This document shows positions 3,263 through 57,261 of a stretch of 64,000 bases of DNA, piece by piece. The notes beneath the pieces were generated by a model. The model did no database searches. It was not told where the DNA came from and saw only the letters and a list, made by a program, of their open reading frames with translations. The first letter of the stretch is position 1. Each line of letters starts with the position of its first letter. Position numbers and translations under genes: made by a program. The stretch is taken from the NCBI RefSeq assembly GCF_058153355.1, contig NZ_CM177019.1. The stretch is one strand, 5' to 3'.

Positions 3263-4027
3263 TCAGAGTCGCTGTTTTTCAGCGATATGGTGCTGACAAG
3301 CGGTGATAAAGCCCTCGAACAATATACGCGAAAGCGCGTATTCGCTACTGTTCCATTCCGGGTGCCACTGTACGCCCAGCGCAAAAGGATGATTGATGAC
3401 GCTAACCGCCTCAACTAAGCCATCCGGCGAGCGGGCTTCAACACGCAACCGTGAGCTAACGACCTTCGCCCCTTGTCCATGCAGAGAGTTTACCCAAAAG
3501 TTGCTACATTCAGGTAACAGTGCAGACAGCAATCCCCCCTCTTCAACCTGAACTTCATGCGACGGTGCATATTGCTGTTCCACCGGCAGTTCGGGATCTT
3601 CCCGATGTTCCAGCAATTCAGGCTGTTCGCACAGCTTGCGATGCAACGAACCACCGGTTGCCACCACCAGTTCCTGTAAACCCCGGCAGATGGCGAAAAT
3701 GGGGATGCGCCTTTCGAGTGCGGCATTAATTAACGCCATGCTCAGAAGATCACGCCCGGGATCGGCGTCAGGCTCATCGCCGTTTTCACCATATAGGTGC
3801 GGCTGCACATTGCTGGGACTACCAGGAAGATAAATACCATCGAGTTTCGGCAAAAGTTGTTCAAGTAATGACGGTTCCGCCAGCGCATGTGGCAGCGCAA
3901 TTGGCAAGCCGCCTGCGTGGATGATGGCATTCAGGTACTTTTCTTGCAGAGTCTGGGTCGCATGACCCTTAAGCCTGTTCCTGCACATTACGACACCGAT
4001 AACCGGATTGTTCATTATATTTTCCAT
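3263..4027 (-). CDS. puuD: gamma-glutamyl-GABA hydrolase (class I glutamine amidotransferase-like)
   Basis: ORF 3263..4039; start taken at MENIMNNPVIGVVM; synteny. Confidence 0.88.
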   Translation of the reverse strand: MENIMNNPVIGVVMCRNRLKGHATQTLQEKYLNAIIHAGGLPIALPHALAEPSLLEQLLPKLDGIYLPGSPSNVQPHLYGENGDEPDADPGRDLLSMALINAALERRIPIFAICRGLQELVVATGGSLHRKLCEQPELLEHREDPELPVEQQYAPSHEVQVEEGGLLSALLPECSNFWVNSLHGQGAKVVSSRLRVEARSPDGLVEAVSVINHPFALGVQWHPEWNSSEYALSRILFEGFITACQHHIAEKQRL

Positions 4028-13369: not shown

Positions 13370-14533
13370 TTACTTTTGATTGTCGATTCTGGTGAGAGCA
13401 ACCAGCAATGCCAGCGTATAACACACCGTAATTGCCAGACTCATTTTTAACAGTGTTTCTCCGCCAATTCCCGACAATGGCGCGGCTATACCGCCGAAGA
13501 CAAACATGCTCATCCCCATCAACGCAGACGCCGTTCCAGATTCCTGCGTCCCTACTGCACTCATAGCCTCTGCCCCGCCAACAGTGCCGATGCCGCTACA
13601 AAATGCGATGGTGAAAAATAATGCCACCAGTGCCGGAATGGGCAATTGTACCCATGCGCATAAGACCGTGAGCAATGCACACAAAATTGCCGCTATCAGG
13701 CCACCTCGCAACAATGTCATCGCGTTAATCCGTCGCGCCAGGCGCGAGAAGATCCATGAAGCAATGATAAGTCCGATGCCGTTAAGGCCAAACACCAGGC
13801 TAAATTGCATTGGACTAAAGCCAAATTCCTTCTGCAACACGAACGACGAAGAGCCGATATACGCAAACAAACCGGCCAGCATAAAACTTTGAATCAGGCA
13901 AAAGCGCATAAAAAGGCGGTTCTGCACCACGCTTCGTCCGGTTAATAGCAATGATGAGCCCCTTTTATTTTCTGGCAAGGTCTCATTAATAAATAACAGG
14001 CAGCCCAGCAACAGTACGGTGCTAATTTCAGCCATTACCCAGAATAAAGTGCGCCAGTCAAAAGTGCTAACAATGTACCCGCCCAGCACTGGCGACAACA
14101 CCGGTGCCAGGCCATTCACCGTCATTAACAGCGCAAAAAACTGGGTCAACGTTACTCCCTGATATTTGTCACGAGCAATAGAACGAGAGAGCACCGAACC
14201 ACCCGCCCCCGCGATCCCTTGAATAAAACGCCAGACCACCAGCCAGTAAATATTGTTCGTTGTCGCGCACAAAATGGAAGAAACAATAAACAATAGCAAC
14301 GACAAGATTAACGGACGTTTACGCCCTATTTTGTCGCTCAGAGGGCCAAATAACAGTTGTCCGACGCCAAGACCGATCAGTGATGCAGTCAGGGTTAATT
14401 GCGTTATGGTCGTGGTTGCCGCCAGTTGCTCAGACATCTCCGGCAAAGCCGGCAAATAAAGATCGGTACACATCGGGCCGATACCGGCTAAAAGACCAAG
14501 AATCAATGCCCATGAAAGAGAGACTCTAGCCAT
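13370..14533 (-). CDS. MFS drug:H+ antiporter, DHA1 (Bcr/CflA-like) family
   Basis: 387 aa, about 12 hydrophobic segments; MFS signature GPLSDKIGRKRP; starts 9 bp after the OMF stop. Confidence 0.8.
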   Translation of the reverse strand: MARVSLSWALILGLLAGIGPMCTDLYLPALPEMSEQLAATTTITQLTLTASLIGLGVGQLLFGPLSDKIGRKRPLILSLLLFIVSSILCATTNNIYWLVVWRFIQGIAGAGGSVLSRSIARDKYQGVTLTQFFALLMTVNGLAPVLSPVLGGYIVSTFDWRTLFWVMAEISTVLLLGCLLFINETLPENKRGSSLLLTGRSVVQNRLFMRFCLIQSFMLAGLFAYIGSSSFVLQKEFGFSPMQFSLVFGLNGIGLIIASWIFSRLARRINAMTLLRGGLIAAILCALLTVLCAWVQLPIPALVALFFTIAFCSGIGTVGGAEAMSAVGTQESGTASALMGMSMFVFGGIAAPLSGIGGETLLKMSLAITVCYTLALLVALTRIDNQK

Positions 14534-15918: not shown

Positions 15919-18900
15919 TTACTCCTGACGGCGCGGTTTACCGGCAAACAAACGTTTCACCAGTACAAAAAACAGAGGAACGAAGAAAATGGCCAGTAAT
16001 GTAGCGGTCAGCGTGCCGCCAATAATGCCCGTACCAATGGCGATGCGGCTGTTCGCCCCTGCACCGGTTGCTATCGCCAGCGGCATTACCCCCGCAATAA
16101 ACGCCAGCGAGGTCATGATGATTGGGCGTAAACGAGTCTGCGCCGCGCGTAATGCCGCACGACTCAAGGAATAACCCTCTGCAACCGCCGCTTCAGCAAA
16201 TTCCACAATCAGAATGGCGTTTTTCGACGACAAGCCGATAGTAGTTAATAGCGCTACCTGGAAGTAAACGTCGTTGTTTAAATCACGCATCCAGGCCGCC
16301 AGCGCCGCGCCAAGAAGCCCCAGAGGGATCACCAGAATGACCGAGAACGGGACTGACCAGCTTTCGTACAGTGCTGCAAGGCAGAGGAAAACCACCAGAA
16401 TAGAAACTGCATACAGACTTAATGCCTGACCGCTCGCCAGTTTCTCCTGCAATGACAAACCACTCCAGGCCCAGGTTGTTCCCGCAGGAAGACTGTTTGC
16501 CAGTTCCTCCATTTTTGTCATTGCATCGCCGGAACTAAAGCCAGTCGCGTTTTCGCCCTGAATTTCATAGGCTGCCGAGCCGTTGTAGCGCACCAGTCTT
16601 TCCGGTCCATACTGCCAGCGGGTGGTCGCAAAAGCAGAGAATGGTGTCATGGCGTTATCGCTACCGCGCACAAACCATTTACCTAAGTCTGACGGCGCAG
16701 AACGAAATTCGCTGTCGCCCTGAATGTAGACTTTTTTCACACGACCACGGTCAATAAAGTCATTCACATAAGTACCGCCCCACGCACTGGACAGGGTGTC
16801 GGTGACATCATTCAAACTCAACCCTAATGACACCGCTTTATTGCTATCAATATCTACCTGCAATTGCGGCATTTGTGGCAAATCATTGGCGCGTACAGAA
16901 TGTAACTCCGGACTTTGATTCGCTTTTTCTATCAACTGATTACGCATTTGCAGCAGTGTTTCACGATCGGTTCCACCGTTAGCTAACAATTCAAACGTAA
17001 AACCATTGCTTTGGCCCAGCCCATCAACGGCTGGCGGCGTCATCGCAAATACCGTCGCATCACGAATTGTGCCCAGCTCTTTGGTAGCCCGTAGGGCGAT
17101 AGCCTGGGCGGTGTTTTCTGCCCCTTTACGTTGAGACCAGTTTTTCAACGAAACAAACGCCATCCCGGTGTTCTGTCCGCTGCCGCTAAAACTGAAACCA
17201 TCAACGGTAAAAATGACATCGGTATTTGCTTTCTCGTTAATCAGGAACCAGTCAACAATCTGGCGATTCACTTCTGCTGTACGGGCAGCGGTCGCCCCGG
17301 CCGGCAGCGTGTACTGCACCATGATTTCGCCCTGGTCTTCAGTGGGTAAGAAACTGCCCGGCAGTTTCCACATCATCAGGGCCATTCCACCACCCAGCAC
17401 GACATAAAGCCCCATCGTTCGGGCTGCACGGCGCAGGACATAAATTACGCCTCGCTGATATTTATCTTCAGTACGGCGGTAAAAGCGGTTAAATGCGCCG
17501 AAAAAGCCTTTTTTATGTGGCGGAACATGCTGGAGGACGGAACCGCACAGGGCGGGAGTCAAGGTCAATGCCACCACCACGGAAAGCAGCATTGCGGAGA
17601 TGATGGTGATGGAGAACTGACGATAAATTACGCCCGTAGATCCCCCAAAGAAGGCCATCGGCAGGAATACGGCTGACAACACCAGCGCAATGGCAACCAG
17701 TGCGCCAGAAATCTCGCCCATTGATTTTTCCGTGGCTTCACGCGCGGGCAACCCTTCGTCACGCATAATGCGTTCGACGTTCTCCACCACCACAATGGCA
17801 TCGTCCACCAGCAAGCCGATCGCCAGCACCATTGCAAACAACGTCAGGGTATTAATCGAATAGCCAAACAACGCAAGAACGCCGAATGTGCCCAGCCAAA
17901 CGACGGGGACAGCTAACGCCGGAATCAGTGTGGCACGCAGGTTTTGCAGGAATAAATACATCACGCAAACCACCAATACGATGGCTTCAAACAGCGTCTG
18001 AATTACGTCCTCTACGGAGATTTTAATAAATTCAGTGCTGTCTTTCGGGTATGCGATGTCGTATCCCTGCGGCATGTTCCGCTGGAATTCGGCAATCTTA
18101 TCCTTGACCAGCGTCGCCGTATTCAGCGCATTCGCACCGGGCGAAAGCATTACAGCAACCCCGGCAGACGGGTGACCGTTAAGTTTGCCGATAGCGGTAT
18201 AATCTTCACTGCCCATCTCAACGCGAGCCACATCTTTTATACGAACAACTGCGCCGTCTGACTGGCTTTTCACGATAATATTTTTGAACTGATCCACCGT
18301 CTGCAAGCGAGACTGCGCACGTACCGTTGCGGTCAGTTGCTGAGTATCCGGTGAAGGCAATGCCCCTATTTTCCCGGCAGTAACCTGCACGTTTTGCGCT
18401 TCAATAGCACTTTGCACGTCTGAAGGCATCAGCGAGTAAGACGCCAGTTTGGCCGGGTCGAGCCAGATGCGCATAGCGTATTCCGCGCCAAAGACTTGCA
18501 GACTCCCCACACCTTCAACACGCGCCAGGGGGTCCTGAACGTTACTGACCAGCCAGTCGGCGATATCCGAACTGGAGGCTTTGTCAGTGGTGTCATACAC
18601 GGCAGCAATCAGCAAAAAGTTGCTTTGTGATTTCTCCACCGTAACACCCGTTTGCTGCACTTCGCTGGGTAGGCGCGACTCCGCCTGCTGAATTTTATTC
18701 TGCACCTGAACCTGTGCAGTATCTGGATCGGTACCTTGTTCAAAGGTCACATTAATACTGACCGAACCATCAGAGCTACTGGTTGAGCTGAAATAGAGTA
18801 AATTATCAAGCCCAGTGAGTTGTTGCTCGATAACCTGAGTCACGCTGTTCTCCAGCGTTTCGGCAGAAGCACCAGTATAAGTGGCTGAAATTTTAATGGT

Positions 18901-19026
18901 CGGCGGTGCAACGTCAGGATATTGCGCGACGGGTAATGTGCGAATAGCCAGAATCCCCGCCAACATAATCAAAATGGCGATAACCCAGGCAAAGACCGGG
19001 CGGCGAACAAAAAAGCGCGAAAACAT
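15919..19026 (-). CDS. RND multidrug efflux permease, HAE1 (AcrB/MexB-like) family
   Basis: 1035 aa; N-terminus MFSRFFVRRPVFAWVIAILIML typical of AcrB-type pumps; 12-TM with two large periplasmic loops. Confidence 0.9.
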   Translation of the reverse strand: MFSRFFVRRPVFAWVIAILIMLAGILAIRTLPVAQYPDVAPPTIKISATYTGASAETLENSVTQVIEQQLTGLDNLLYFSSTSSSDGSVSINVTFEQGTDPDTAQVQVQNKIQQAESRLPSEVQQTGVTVEKSQSNFLLIAAVYDTTDKASSSDIADWLVSNVQDPLARVEGVGSLQVFGAEYAMRIWLDPAKLASYSLMPSDVQSAIEAQNVQVTAGKIGALPSPDTQQLTATVRAQSRLQTVDQFKNIIVKSQSDGAVVRIKDVARVEMGSEDYTAIGKLNGHPSAGVAVMLSPGANALNTATLVKDKIAEFQRNMPQGYDIAYPKDSTEFIKISVEDVIQTLFEAIVLVVCVMYLFLQNLRATLIPALAVPVVWLGTFGVLALFGYSINTLTLFAMVLAIGLLVDDAIVVVENVERIMRDEGLPAREATEKSMGEISGALVAIALVLSAVFLPMAFFGGSTGVIYRQFSITIISAMLLSVVVALTLTPALCGSVLQHVPPHKKGFFGAFNRFYRRTEDKYQRGVIYVLRRAARTMGLYVVLGGGMALMMWKLPGSFLPTEDQGEIMVQYTLPAGATAARTAEVNRQIVDWFLINEKANTDVIFTVDGFSFSGSGQNTGMAFVSLKNWSQRKGAENTAQAIALRATKELGTIRDATVFAMTPPAVDGLGQSNGFTFELLANGGTDRETLLQMRNQLIEKANQSPELHSVRANDLPQMPQLQVDIDSNKAVSLGLSLNDVTDTLSSAWGGTYVNDFIDRGRVKKVYIQGDSEFRSAPSDLGKWFVRGSDNAMTPFSAFATTRWQYGPERLVRYNGSAAYEIQGENATGFSSGDAMTKMEELANSLPAGTTWAWSGLSLQEKLASGQALSLYAVSILVVFLCLAALYESWSVPFSVILVIPLGLLGAALAAWMRDLNNDVYFQVALLTTIGLSSKNAILIVEFAEAAVAEGYSLSRAALRAAQTRLRPIIMTSLAFIAGVMPLAIATGAGANSRIAIGTGIIGGTLTATLLAIFFVPLFFVLVKRLFAGKPRRQE

Positions 19027-20147
19027 CAGGCATTGCCTCCATTAGCCTGAACTTCAACAGCCTTGACGGTCTGCCCTGAAGTGACTTTGGCAGAACCTTC
19101 AACAATCAGTCGGTCGCCGTTGTGCAGGCCGTTCAGCACCAGCCATTTATCACCATACGTTTCTCCCGTTTCGAGCGTTCGCTGCTCTACTTTATTGTCT
19201 TTATTCACCACCAGCGCAGTTGCATTGCCTTTAGCATCGCGCGTAACGCCCTGTTGAGGCGCGAGAATAGCGTTTTCCATCACGCCTTCATCGACACGAG
19301 CGCGAACAAACATTCCCGGTAATAACTGCTGTTGTGGATTGGGGAAAATTGCCCGTAATGTCACCGAACCGGTAGACTCATCCACCGCGACTTCGGTGAG
19401 TTCCAGACGCCCTTTTTCGCTGTAGGTTGTGCCATCTTCCAGAATAAGTGAGACGCTCATGGTGTCACTGTTGGTCGCCAGTGACTGTTTACGCAGACGT
19501 AATAAATCGACACTGGAGCGAGTGAGGTCGACATACATTGTATCCAGACCACGAATAGTCGTTAACGCTGTATCCTGCGACGCGGTCACCAGTGCGCCAG
19601 GGGTTACCGACGAAATACCAATACGCCCCGAAATCGGTGCGGTTACCGTGGTCCAGTCAAGATTAATGCGCGCAGTTTCCAGTGCGGCTTTTTTCGCCTC
19701 TACACTGGCTTTATCTTGTGCACAGGTAGACTGAGCATCATCAGCATCCTGTTGTGAAACACCATTCTCTTTCACCAGTCGGGCATAACGCTGCGCTTTC
19801 TGGCAATCGGCTTTTACCAGTGCCTGTGCTTGTTGTAATGCTGCCCGGGCTTCATTCCATGCAGCCTGATAACTGGCCGCATCAATCTGGTAGAGAGGCT
19901 GTCCAGCCTTGACCAGATCACCTTCCTTAAATAAGCGTTTCTGGATAATTCCCCCAACTTGCGGACGTACTTCAGCACTGAGCGCAGCACTGGTGCGTCC
20001 GGTTAATTCACTGACTACCGAAACCGGTTGAGATTTGAGCGTAACAACGCCGACTTCTGTTTCTGACGGGGATGAATTGTTACTTTGCGTATTATCACAA
20101 CCCGATAAGAGCAGCATTGCCACTACAGATGTTGCTATATACTTCAT
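19026..20147 (-). CDS. RND periplasmic adaptor (membrane fusion protein) lipoprotein
   Basis: ORF 19026..20180; start at MKYIATSVVAMLLLSGC (lipobox); stop overlaps the RND start. Confidence 0.85.
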   Translation of the reverse strand: MKYIATSVVAMLLLSGCDNTQSNNSSPSETEVGVVTLKSQPVSVVSELTGRTSAALSAEVRPQVGGIIQKRLFKEGDLVKAGQPLYQIDAASYQAAWNEARAALQQAQALVKADCQKAQRYARLVKENGVSQQDADDAQSTCAQDKASVEAKKAALETARINLDWTTVTAPISGRIGISSVTPGALVTASQDTALTTIRGLDTMYVDLTRSSVDLLRLRKQSLATNSDTMSVSLILEDGTTYSEKGRLELTEVAVDESTGSVTLRAIFPNPQQQLLPGMFVRARVDEGVMENAILAPQQGVTRDAKGNATALVVNKDNKVEQRTLETGETYGDKWLVLNGLHNGDRLIVEGSAKVTSGQTVKAVEVQANGGNA

Positions 20148-20231
20148 TATTTTCTCCAGGGTGAGAAATACCCTCCTCATTGAAATTAATGAGGATATGT
20201 CAGGGATATTCAGTTATAACGAACCCGCATC

Positions 20232-20247
20232 GCGAAATGAATTTCGC
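20232..20247. promoter_or_regulatory. 7-2-7 inverted repeat gcgaaat-ga-atttcgc upstream of the adaptor gene; candidate TetR operator
   Basis: Read directly; lies between the tetR terminator hairpin and the adaptor start. Confidence 0.45.
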
Positions 20248-20257
20248 AATGAAATAA

Positions 20258-20275
20258 GGGGGATTAATATCCCCC
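20258..20275. terminator. hairpin gggggat-taat-atccccc, T-rich on the minus strand; candidate tetR terminator
   Basis: Perfect 7 bp stem about 20 bp after the tetR stop (minus strand). Confidence 0.5.
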
Positions 20276-20295
20276 GCTATTGGTTAATTCTGTTC

Positions 20296-20862
20296 TTATT
20301 TATTTATCAACATACTAACAATATCCTGATATATTTCCTGCAGATGTTGTGGATCGCTTTTTTGCGGTGTTAAACGACGATAAACCGTACCTTCCATCAT
20401 GGTAGCAAACACTTCAACGCAGCAATGAATGTGATCGTCGCTAAGATGGGGATGCATTCTTTTCATATGTGCACAACCGTTAGCGAACATTCTGGCGTCA
20501 GCTTCTTCAAGCATTGCCATAACCCGCGGGTTGCGTGTGGCTTCTGCAGCCACTTCCAGCATCAGCGCGTCGTCGTCCTCATTTAAGGATTTACGCAAGG
20601 CAAGGACTTCCGGGAAGTGATCGGTACGCGCGTCAATGTCCATTTGGGCAATACGAAAGTCGATGATACGGCGAACCATCTCTTCAATAATGGCGTCTTT
20701 GTTGGCGAAGTAACGATATATCTGACCCACGCTAAGCTGAGCTTCGCTGGCAATTTGCGACATACTGGCGGCATGAAATCCGCAGCGACGAAAACACCGA
20801 CGGGCGGCGTTAATGATTTCATCCTGACGCTGTTTGTGGCGTATCTCCAGCTTGCTGGTCAT
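20296..20862 (-). CDS. TetR/AcrR-family transcriptional regulator
   Basis: ORF 20296..20961; start at MTSKLEI with AGGAG 7 nt upstream; HTH region AARRCFRRCGFHAASMSQIASEAQLSVGQIYRYF. Confidence 0.8.
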   Translation of the reverse strand: MTSKLEIRHKQRQDEIINAARRCFRRCGFHAASMSQIASEAQLSVGQIYRYFANKDAIIEEMVRRIIDFRIAQMDIDARTDHFPEVLALRKSLNEDDDALMLEVAAEATRNPRVMAMLEEADARMFANGCAHMKRMHPHLSDDHIHCCVEVFATMMEGTVYRRLTPQKSDPQHLQEIYQDIVSMLINK

Positions 20863-20887
20863 TTCTGTCTCCTGGCCTATCACTTGG

Positions 20888-20905
20888 TGAGAATGATCAT
20901 TCTCA
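20888..20905. promoter_or_regulatory. 18 bp perfect palindrome tgagaatgatcattctca, 26 bp upstream of the tetR start; candidate autoregulatory operator
   Basis: Read directly on the sequence. Confidence 0.4.
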
Positions 20906-21339
20906 TTTTTGCTAATTATACGTTTCTCCAAAGTAATGGAAAGTATTTTTATCTTATTCATGGTGCATATTCTGATAATGAAGAGATTGTGGAGATTCTG
21001 TGAAGATAGTTGACAATATTAAGTTGGGGTCAATTCATCAGAAAGGCAGCGACTTGTTGTCGCCAGTTCTGTTTTCATCATCAAACTTATCGGAGCTAAT
21101 ACGAATAGTTTCATAGTCAGATTCTATAAGATATTTCCCCAACCTACCCCTTGCAGGCGTCAAGAGTAGATAACGCAAAATGCTCTGTACCGCAGCTTCT
21201 CTCCGGTACAGAAAGCGCAACTATAGCCACCCACAGCCAGGTTGATTATAATAACCGTTTATCTGTTCGTACTGTTTACTAAAACGACGAATCGCCTGAT
21301 TTTCAGGCACAACAAGCATCAACAATAAGGATTAAAGCT

Positions 21340-22128
21340 ATGGGTTTTCTTTCCGGTAAGCGCATTCTGGTAACCGGTGTTGCCAGCAAACTGTCCATCG
21401 CCTACGGTATCGCTCAGGCGATGCACCGCGAAGGAGCTGAACTGGCATTCACCTACCAGAACGACAAACTGAAAGGCCGCGTAGAAGAATTTGCCGCTCA
21501 ATTGGGTTCTGACATCGTTCTGCAGTGCGATGTTGCAGAAGATGCCAGCATCGACACCATGTTCGCTGAACTGGGTAAAGTTTGGCCGAAATTTGACGGC
21601 TTTGTACATTCCATTGGTTTTGCACCGGGCGATCAGCTGGATGGTGACTATGTTAACGCCGTTACTCGTGAAGGCTTCAAAATTGCCCACGACATCAGCT
21701 CCTACAGCTTCGTTGCAATGGCAAAAGCTTGCCGCTCCATGCTGAATCCGGGCTCTGCCCTGCTGACCCTTTCCTACCTTGGCGCTGAGCGCGCTATCCC
21801 GAACTACAACGTTATGGGTCTGGCAAAAGCGTCTCTGGAAGCGAACGTGCGCTATATGGCGAACGCGATGGGTCCGGAAGGTGTGCGTGTTAACGCCATC
21901 TCTGCTGGTCCGATCCGTACTCTGGCGGCTTCCGGTATCAAAGACTTCCGCAAAATGCTGGCTCATTGCGAAGCCGTTACCCCGATTCGCCGTACCGTTA
22001 CTATTGAAGATGTGGGTAACTCTGCGGCATTCCTGTGCTCCGATCTCTCTGCCGGTATCTCCGGTGAAGTGGTCCACGTTGACGGCGGTTTCAGCATCGC
22101 TGCAATGAACGAACTCGAACTGAAATAA
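21340..22128 (+). CDS. fabI: enoyl-ACP reductase (NADH), SDR family
   Basis: 262 aa; [29 protein letters not shown]-terminus; ends AAMNELELK. Confidence 0.95.
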
Positions 22129-29416: not shown

Positions 29417-29441
29417 GCCACGGATATATCCGTGGCTTTTT
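29417..29441. terminator. bidirectional terminator between osmB and yciH
   Basis: gccacggatatatccgtggc followed by ttttt. Confidence 0.75.
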
Positions 29442-29774: not shown

Positions 29775-30508
29775 GCACTCCGCTGTAAAGAGGCGTTGAT
29801 CGCTTTCAGCGTTTGCGCTGGATCTACCGATTGCGTTACCGGGCGACCAATCACCATATAATCAACACCAGCCGCCAACGCCTGTTCTGGCGTCATAATG
29901 CGGCGCTGGTCACCAGCTTCACTCCCCTGCGGACGAATGCCCGGCGTAACCAGTTTGAACTCCTGACCGAATACCTGTTTAAAGCGCACAGCTTCCTGAG
30001 CAGAACACACCACACCATCAAGGCCACATTTTTGCGTCAGTGCCGCCAGACGTTCTGCATAATCTGCAGGTGACAGCGTCACGCCAAGATCGGCCAGGTC
30101 GCTGGCTTCCATGCTGGTCAACACCGTCACAGCAATCAAAAGCGGTGCATCTTTGCCAAACGGGACGAGTGCCTCACGCGCTGCGGTCATCATACGCGCC
30201 CCACCGGAGGCGTGAACATTCACCATCCACACGCCTAAGTCAGCTGCAGCAGCGACAGCGTGCGCTGCAGTGTTGGGAATATCGTGAAATTTCAGGTCGA
30301 GGAAGATATCAAAACCACGCTGTTGAAGTTCGCGTACAAATTGAGGTCCAAACAGCGTAAACATCTCTTTGCCGACTTTCAGACGACAATCGCGTGGGTC
30401 GATCTTGTCGACAAAGGCCAGCGCGGCATCACGATTATGATAATCAAGGGCAACAACCACAGGAGAATTCGTAACAGCGCGGGAAGAAGATGAAGCAGTT
30501 AACGTCAT
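29771..30508 (-). CDS. pyrF: orotidine-5'-phosphate decarboxylase
   Basis: ORF 29771..30568; start at [23 protein letters not shown] gives 245 aa. Confidence 0.92.
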
Positions 30509-36840: not shown

Positions 36841-36968
36841 ATTTGTGTTGATCATAGGCTACACCCTTAACGGTTATTACTTTGTGTTGAGATAACTCAA
36901 CCTGTTATTGCTGCGGTGTATTAAAAGCCCTTTAATTCATTAAAAATGGGTAATAAGAATGATGATAA

Positions 36969-37157
36969 TTATTGTTTCGGCTGATCATCTTCAGCAAACA
37001 GTTCTATAAAGGCTTGCTGCTGCGTTGTTAGTTGCCAGTCGTCTGGAATAACGACGGAACATTCCCGTTTCGTTACTGGTTCATTGTCACTATGCTGACA
37101 TAATGGTGACGACTCCAGTTGCTCCTGACCGACCATAGTTATCCCCACACTTTCCAA
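36969..37157 (-). CDS. yciX: small protein of unknown function
   Basis: 62 aa ORF in the cysB-acnA intergenic region, where K-12 carries ymiA-yciX (from memory). Confidence 0.5.
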   Translation of the reverse strand: MESVGITMVGQEQLESSPLCQHSDNEPVTKRECSVVIPDDWQLTTQQQAFIELFAEDDQPKQ

Positions 37158-57203: not shown

Positions 57204-57261
57204 TACCCTTTATGCCATGTCCTTATTGACCCCGTAATTACGGGGTCATTTTTGTGCGGAA

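Follow-up and report, generated by a model that had tools for sequence, protein, structure and literature searches.

An 18-bp palindrome upstream of eefR as the probable single operator of the eefRABCD efflux operon in Escherichia coli

Which protein acts at the perfect 18-bp palindrome that lies just upstream of a TetR-family regulator gene, and which genes are controlled from it? A first-pass annotation of this DNA read the palindrome as the operator of a dimeric regulator that controls the tetR gene, and offered two branches: either the adjacent regulator recognises two different operators, the palindrome and an unrelated repeat upstream of the pump operon, or a second dimeric regulator acts on tetR. 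The general reading stands, whereas both branches fall. The palindrome is already known, as the EefR operator that was characterised experimentally in 2025 (PMC12482432). We conclude, with a probability of about 0.93, that it is the single operator of eefRABCD, at which EefR represses its own gene and the four pump genes. The either/or dissolves once the five genes are seen to be co-directional and to form one operon with one operator. The published work established that EefR binds, that binding depends on the palindrome, that EefR represses its own gene, and that the five genes are co-transcribed, with derepression in a delta-eefR strain (PMC12482432); the present analysis contributes the identity of locus and probe, the promoter-proximal position of the site, its deep conservation and the absence of a second site.

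The palindrome and its locus

The window, by which we mean the whole 64-kb length of DNA that was analysed, is from E. coli, and its sapF–fabI interval contains the accessory eefRABCD operon, the locus treated here. Many E. coli chromosomes are 99.6% identical to the window over positions 20180–21340, a stretch found at full length in 2034 of 5426 complete genomes. The annotation reads, in order, sapF, an MFS transporter, an outer-membrane factor, an RND permease, an adaptor, a TetR/AcrR regulator and, on the other strand, fabI. The name eefRABCD is used for this locus by two papers (PMC12817139, PMC12482432), and wherever the operon occurs, in phylogroups B2, D, E, F and G, it lies between these two genes, sapF and fabI (PMC12817139). 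Its genes are placed as follows in the window.

13370..14533, minus strand: eefD, Bcr/CflA-type MFS transporter, last gene of the operon (NCBIfam TIGR00710 and annotation; name from PMC12482432)
14542..15915, minus strand: eefC, outer-membrane factor (NCBIfam TIGR01845 and annotation)
15919..19026, minus strand: eefB, RND permease (NCBIfam TIGR00915, 1552 bits, and annotation)
19026..20147, minus strand: eefA, periplasmic adaptor (NCBIfam RND adaptor subfamily; PGAP length 1122 nt)
20296..20862, minus strand: eefR, TetR-family repressor, 188 aa (Pfam TetR_N; PGAP start)
20868..20873, minus strand: Shine-Dalgarno-like AGGAGA, 5 nt before the eefR ATG (read from the sequence)

The EefR protein of the window carries the Pfam domain TetR_N (PF00440) at residues 16–62, with a score of 57.5 bits against a cut-off of 24. 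It is identical to WP_000202113.1, the common E. coli EefR, at 186 of 188 residues, and residues 1–142, including the helix-turn-helix, are identical throughout. The start codon is the ATG at 20862..20860 on the minus strand, a choice that rests on the PGAP start in near-identical genomes, the N-termini of 15 orthologues, the AGGAGA sequence and the published description of EefR as a protein of 188 aa (PMC12482432). A 221-aa frame from the ATG at 20961, given in the mechanical ORF list, was rejected as overextended; it would put the promoter and operator within coding sequence.

Some eefR-carrying records are filed as plasmids. In five plasmid-collection hits and one further record (CP054253.1), eefR lies inside the chromosomal neighbourhood sapCD-eef-fabI-rnb-osmB-yciH-pyrF; all such records are typed as non-mobilizable, and three of them are 4.8–4.9 Mb in size. 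Plasmid carriage of the eef locus was rejected, since these records look like chromosome pieces filed as plasmids, and this resemblance weakens the published claim of a plasmid-borne cluster.

The palindrome itself is the following feature.

20888..20905: EefR operator, TGAGAATGATCATTCTCA, the perfect-palindrome allele of the published TGAGAACGATCATTCTCA

Read directly on the plus strand, positions 20888–20905 give tgagaatgatcattctca, a perfect 9+9 palindrome without a gap, as the first-pass annotation had described. The inverted-repeat listing omitted it, and it was confirmed by reading the sequence and by a script of our own. The distance of 26 bp to the regulator start given earlier is also correct with the ATG at 20862: it runs from the edge of the palindrome to the A of the eefR ATG, with 25 bases between. 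The motif TGAGAA-N6-TTCTCA is present in TGAGAATGATCATTCTCA, and a search of the 64-kb window for copies of TGAGAATGATCATTCTCA at up to 3 mismatches, of which 0.01 would be expected, returns 20888–20905 only.

Symmetry of this order is not rare. The window contains three perfect 18-bp palindromes, against 0.33 ± 0.52 in 200 dinucleotide shuffles, and at least one is present in 30% of the shuffles. The significance of the palindrome therefore comes from its position and its conservation, not from its symmetry. Only two other perfect gapless palindromes of at least 18 bp are found in the window, at 29417–29436 (GCCACGGATATATCCGTGGC) and 57227–57248 (TGACCCCGTAATTACGGGGTCA); with TTTTT after each, both are predicted to be ordinary intrinsic-terminator hairpins.

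EefR, the eefR promoter and conservation of the site

EefR has been characterised in E. coli ATCC 35218 (PMC12482432, Virulence 2025), and its identity to the nearest characterised TetR-family protein, UidR, is 21%. The purified protein shifts a 129-bp probe from the fabI–eefR spacer containing TGAGAACGATCATTCTCA, and unlabelled probe competes; a probe without the palindrome is unbound, and point mutants in one arm lose the shift. A 148-bp fragment "downstream of eefR", used as a nonspecific competitor, does not compete for EefR (PMC12482432). A PeefR-gfp reporter in DH5alpha is repressed by wild-type EefR, RT-PCR places eefR-eefA-eefB-eefC-eefD on one transcript, and expression in a delta-eefR strain rises 83-fold for eefA, 28-fold for eefB, 43-fold for eefC and 27-fold for eefD (PMC12482432). 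In the same work sanguinarine selected loss-of-function mutants of eefR, an effect of mutation rather than of induction.

Two checks proposed in the first-pass annotation have already been made. An EMSA with the TetR protein is published, in which EefR shifts a palindrome probe that carries the C7 allele (PMC12482432). As for further copies of the motif in the genome, a MAST scan of the ATCC 35218 genome with TGAGAANNNNNNTTCTCA gave no further site (PMC12482432), and our own count is one copy per genome over 2039 E. coli genomes with the site. Together with the published RNA-seq, these results answer the question of extra copies.

The published experiments can be placed on the window through the probe primers, which were taken from the supplement of PMC12482432 and mapped. 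The primers eefR-gel-F and eefR-gel-R match with 0 mismatches at 20863–20881 and 20972–20991.

20863..20991: equivalent of the 129-bp EMSA probe P1, bound by EefR (primer match)
20148..20293: 146-bp equivalent of the nonspecific competitor (eefA-gel-F/eefA-gel-R, 0 mismatches), the whole eefR–eefA spacer including the pump-side repeat

The bound probe is almost exactly the interval that the first-pass annotation had singled out. The deletion probe P2 corresponds to 20906–20991; besides the palindrome it lacks the 25 bp between the palindrome and the ATG, a gap that is covered by the point mutants.

The operator of the window shares locus, position, flanks and the TGAGAA-N6-TTCTCA motif with that of ATCC 35218 (PMC12482432), and the EefR proteins are 99% identical. 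The two operators differ by one base: position 7 is T in the window (plus-strand A at 20899), so that the palindrome is perfect, and C in the published allele. The C allele is found in four other strains checked, and the exact 40-mer of the window in 687 of the 2039 E. coli genomes with the site. Both T/C at position 7 and A/G at position 12 vary freely among orthologues, and EefR is for this reason expected to bind the T7 allele of the window. A single-base mutant loses the shift (PMC12482432) and natural single-base variants are common, so that the positions must differ in importance.

The predicted promoter of eefR lies immediately upstream of the operator.

20915..20920, minus strand: −10-like hexamer TATAAT of the eefR promoter (promoter scan); the operator begins 9 nt downstream
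20937..20942, minus strand: −35-like hexamer TTTCCA (promoter scan), with a 16-nt spacer to the −10

With its start 9 nt past the −10, the operator lies over the predicted transcription start and the first part of the transcribed region; the eefR transcription start given in PMC12482432 is likewise a prediction. The palindrome thus overlaps or abuts the core promoter of the unit that it regulates, the promoter being a predicted one. On the plus strand a second promoter-like pair, TAGCCA and TATAAT separated by 17 nt, is seen at 21224–21252 upstream of fabI; this would give the AT-rich spacer of 477 bp (about 40% GC) two promoters that face away from each other, one for eefR and one for fabI.

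Comparison with other genera indicates that the operator is old. An EefR alignment scanned against one genome per species gave 80 loci with 48–97% protein identity, from Escherichia, Raoultella, Kluyvera, Enterobacter, Lelliottia, Kosakonia, Phytobacter, Cedecea, Erwinia, Pantoea, Mixta, Brenneria, Lonsdalea and Serratia. The site TGAGAAyGAnCryTCkCA lies upstream of the regulator in all 80, with 0–6 mismatches, and a matrix derived from the sites finds a match of at least 10 bits within 200 nt upstream in every one; elsewhere in 507 kb it finds only four weak matches, of 10.5–14 bits. In the site-anchored alignment, positions 2–6, 11, 14 and 15 approach 2 bits and the flanks carry almost no information. 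Anchoring inflates the information of the site somewhat, and the recovery in 80/80 loci is the stronger argument. The helix-turn-helix region of EefR is nearly invariant in the orthologue alignment. We conclude from these comparisons that the site is ancient and follows eefR across Enterobacterales.

The promoter elements recur among the orthologues as well. TATAAT, TACAAT or TATACT is found 0–10 nt upstream of the operator in every genus among the 80 loci, and TTTCCA or TTTTCA at the matching distance in Escherichia, Raoultella, Kluyvera, Enterobacter and Lelliottia; in many orthologues the TTTCCA-like −35 sits 16–17 nt further upstream.

Downstream of the regulator the loci differ. Regulator and operator are followed by eefA-eefB in Enterobacteriaceae, or directly by an eefD-like MFS gene in Erwinia, Pantoea and most Serratia. 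Operator-eefR-eefD appears to form the conserved core, within which Enterobacteriaceae have eefABC and a structured spacer between eefR and eefD. In eight loci, from Erwinia, Pantoea and Mixta, the stop codon of the regulator overlaps the MFS start in an ATGA sequence (near 3552–3573 in the coordinates of these loci); such a tight bicistron is controllable only from the upstream site.

Several variants of the arrangement occur in the more distant genera. Two loci, from Serratia marcescens and Brenneria, have RND genes divergent from eefR, with the operator in the shared spacer. Like the arrangements with eefA-eefB or the MFS gene downstream, this fits one operator per locus. Seven loci, from some Serratia, Brenneria, Lonsdalea and Erwinia, have a 22-bp palindrome, TGAGAATGAACGTTCATTCTCA, about 85–145 nt upstream of the regulator, in which two overlapping 18-bp sites are offset by 4 bp and score about 19 bits each; this form may represent a two-dimer arrangement. 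In nine other Serratia loci a complementary sequence downstream pairs with the right operator arm, and arm and complement change in concert (GTTCGCAcccaaaacGCGAAC versus GTTCACAcccaaaaTGTGAAC), which suggests a 5'-UTR hairpin that overlaps the operator.

The eefR–eefA spacer and other readings of the palindrome

The spacer between eefR and eefA contains three hairpins.

20258..20275, minus strand: HP1, GC-rich hairpin with a T-run, just past the eefR stop (terminator scan)
20228..20251, minus strand: HP2, CATTGCGAAAT-TC-ATTTCGCGATG, 11+11 inverted repeat (inverted-repeat listing)
20174..20195, minus strand: HP3, TCCTCATTAATTTCAATGAGGA, upstream of the eefA ribosome-binding region (inverted-repeat and terminator scans)

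HP2 is almost certainly the repeat upstream of the pump operon to which the palindrome had been called unrelated in the first-pass annotation. That judgement was sound: with the family matrix the repeat scores −10.6 bits in its best register and the palindrome +30.8 bits.

The idea that EefR has two operators, the palindrome and the inverted repeat at 20228–20251 before eefA, draws on the location of this 11+11 repeat between eefR and eefA, on a loose fit of its outer bases to TGnGAA-N6-TTCnCn, and on the finding that sequences upstream of eefA matter for the phenotypes of cloned eefAB, eefABC and eefABCD (PMC12482432). We consider it very improbable. The fragment equivalent to 20148–20293, which carries the repeat, fails to compete for EefR, and eefR and eefABCD share a transcript from the eefR promoter and are derepressed together (PMC12482432). 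The repeat scores negatively with the operator matrix, and in none of the 80 loci does the stretch from the regulator to the following gene contain an EefR box that reaches 10 bits. The promoter scan found no minus-strand promoter-like site in the spacer. A half-site shared with the operator, in the form TGCGAA-N6-TTCGCG of the pump repeat, was also considered and rejected, given the score of −10.6 bits, the non-competition and the covariation of the hairpin.

This covariation indicates what the repeat is. All 30 distinct orthologous spacers fold individually into HP1, HP2 and HP3. When the 30 are analysed together with RNAalifold, the HP2 helix shows compensatory changes in six of its nine pairs; 97% of its cells are paired, compared with 37–54% when the partners are slid, and cells with double changes number 36, against 7.8 ± 2.4 in shuffles. 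Many of its pairs are G·U (22 of 30 spacers have U·G at columns 60/77), and the length of the loop varies. A G·U pair is not palindromic in DNA and works only on the sense strand, which argues for a structure of the transcript. The sequence of HP2, moreover, drifts freely with its pairing kept, while the recognition region of EefR is nearly invariant, which argues against an EefR operator. HP2 thus looks like a transcript hairpin and not a second operator, in agreement with the published non-competition.

The other two hairpins are equally persistent. At the position of HP1 a hairpin with a U-run is seen in 30/30 orthologous spacers, with differing stem sequences, and HP3 is present in the minimum-energy fold of all 30, again with differing stems that, like those of HP2, covary across genera. 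HP1 resembles an intrinsic terminator by the usual pattern criteria; the five-gene RT-PCR transcript (PMC12482432) implies at least some read-through. A conserved block, TTCACCCTGGA(G/A)AAA, precedes the eefA ATG, and a small stem adjoins the eefA ribosome-binding site. The eefA ATG at 20147 is conserved and in frame in 29 orthologues; a 384-aa eefA frame from 20180, which begins inside HP3, was set aside in favour of this conserved start.

Other candidate elements in the spacer were rejected. A sigma-70 promoter has no match in the scan, and the alignment contains no conserved −35/−10 pair. A leader peptide from the ATG at the end of HP2 (GATGCGG) has neither conserved frames nor conserved lengths, and this ATG is missing in three of five Kluyvera spacers and in Dryocola, Cedecea, Phytobacter and UBA3516. 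A search of Rfam with 20000–21400 at E ≤ 1 gave no match.

Taken as a whole, the spacer of roughly 150 nt at 20148–20295 could be a conserved structured leader that provides a second, EefR-independent control of the pump genes, a proposal that we put forward tentatively and hold to be somewhat more doubtful than probable. If it is true, the spacer would act through partial termination that sets the ratio of regulator to pump, and/or through processing, stability or translational control, and such leader control would explain why sequences upstream of eefA are needed for the pump phenotypes (PMC12482432).

Returning to the palindrome, a role as a Fur box, alone or in addition, with the operon regulated by iron, is also very unlikely. 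The site matches the 19-bp Fur consensus GATAATGATAATCATTATC at 13 of 19 positions, in several overlapping registers and on both strands. Matches of this quality are common, however: the window has 29 positions with a score of 13 or more, among them six with 14. Relative to a 9-1-9 Fur box, the spacing of the half-sites is shorter by 3 bp. Only 12 of 19 positions match in the E. coli allele used in the published EMSA, 11 in Kluyvera and 10 in Serratia, while the EefR motif remains intact; since the one decays and the other stays, the conservation is not for Fur. Better clusters of Fur-consensus matches than that at the operator, with overlapping 13–14/19 matches, occur at 36949–36976 and 30427–30451; judged by offset from the SCU-125 annotation, the first lies in the yciX/ymiA region and the second where pyrF begins.

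A second dimeric regulator, distinct from EefR, that binds the palindrome and controls eefR has nothing specific in its favour, and we regard it as exceedingly improbable. Additional regulators are conceivable in general terms, given that H-NS silences eefABC in K. aerogenes and that the eefR–fabI spacer is AT-rich. The protein encoded next to the site is nevertheless the one that binds it, as seen by EMSA with deletion and point mutants (PMC12482432), and EefR alone represses PeefR-gfp in DH5alpha, a derivative of K-12, a lineage without eef (PMC12482432, PMC12817139). The site also accompanies the eefR orthologue in 80/80 loci, across differing contexts and downstream genes. This co-occurrence points to a cognate local operator and not to the site of a host-wide factor.

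The possibility that the palindrome acts as an RNA hairpin in the 5' UTR of eefR, affecting stability or translation, and not as a DNA site, has scarcely any probability left. Being downstream of the predicted −10, the palindrome is probably transcribed, and its RNA could fold into a stem of 7 bp that carries a GAUC loop. Against this, EMSA demonstrates DNA binding by EefR (PMC12482432). The orthologues speak in the same sense: palindromes are perfect in only 15 of the 80 loci (2 of 30 distinct sites), positions 1/18, 3/16, 6/13 and 9/10 are mismatched in at least a third of the distinct sites, and there is essentially no compensatory change in the operator, the opposite of what is seen in HP2. 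The sequence is kept and the symmetry is not, as for a DNA site that binds protein and not for an RNA hairpin. An ArgR box, suggested by a GAAT-N4-ATTC sequence in the palindrome that resembles half of an ARG box, was dropped, as there is a single box with GATC rather than A/T at its centre.

Proposed mechanism, related systems and meaning

With the palindrome taken as the single EefR operator, control of the operon can be envisaged as follows. An EefR molecule, probably a dimer, encoded 26 bp downstream would bind TGAGAA-N6-TTCTCA and, lying over the predicted start region, would block RNA polymerase sterically, by occlusion of open-complex formation or of promoter escape. One site would in this way serve both for negative autoregulation of eefR, with negative feedback on the level of EefR, and for keeping both pumps repressed, EefABC of the RND type and EefD of the MFS type. 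Repression would be relieved by a ligand acting on the C-terminal domain of EefR. More speculatively, HP1 may limit how often transcription continues into eefA, and HP2 and HP3 may act on the stability or the translation of the RNA.

The TetR protein of Tn10, with its N-terminal helix-turn-helix, binds a short palindrome at a promoter, represses its own gene and an efflux gene, and is released by ligand; tetR and tetA diverge, with two tetO sites of 15 bp common to both. EefR resembles this system as a TetR-family protein that acts at a promoter palindrome and represses its own gene together with efflux genes, and by analogy release by a ligand is to be expected. It differs in that its gene is the first of a co-directional operon of five genes and in that there is a single 18-bp site. 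AcrR, whose gene is divergent from acrAB, binds a 24-bp inverted repeat and autoregulates. The EefR system is similar in having a local TetR-family repressor of an RND operon, an inverted repeat at the promoter and autoregulation. The EefR protein of the window, however, scores 33 bits with the NCBIfam AcrR model, for which the cut-off is 271, and eefR is not divergent. The eefABC genes of Klebsiella (Enterobacter) aerogenes encode a homologous RND pump; in the account of Masi et al. (2005), as cited, they are described without eefR and eefD and are silenced by H-NS, whereas the E. coli operon differs in being controlled by EefR at the palindrome.

What the comparative results add to the characterised operator is modest: an ancient site, an apparent core of eefR and eefD, and the hairpins of the spacer as candidates for control after initiation. 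Of all this, only the structured eefR–eefA spacer may be new. The E. coli phylogroups most associated with infection carry EefABC as a seventh RND pump, and loss of EefR repression leads to higher resistance in acrB-deficient cells; the palindrome is the switch of this operon.
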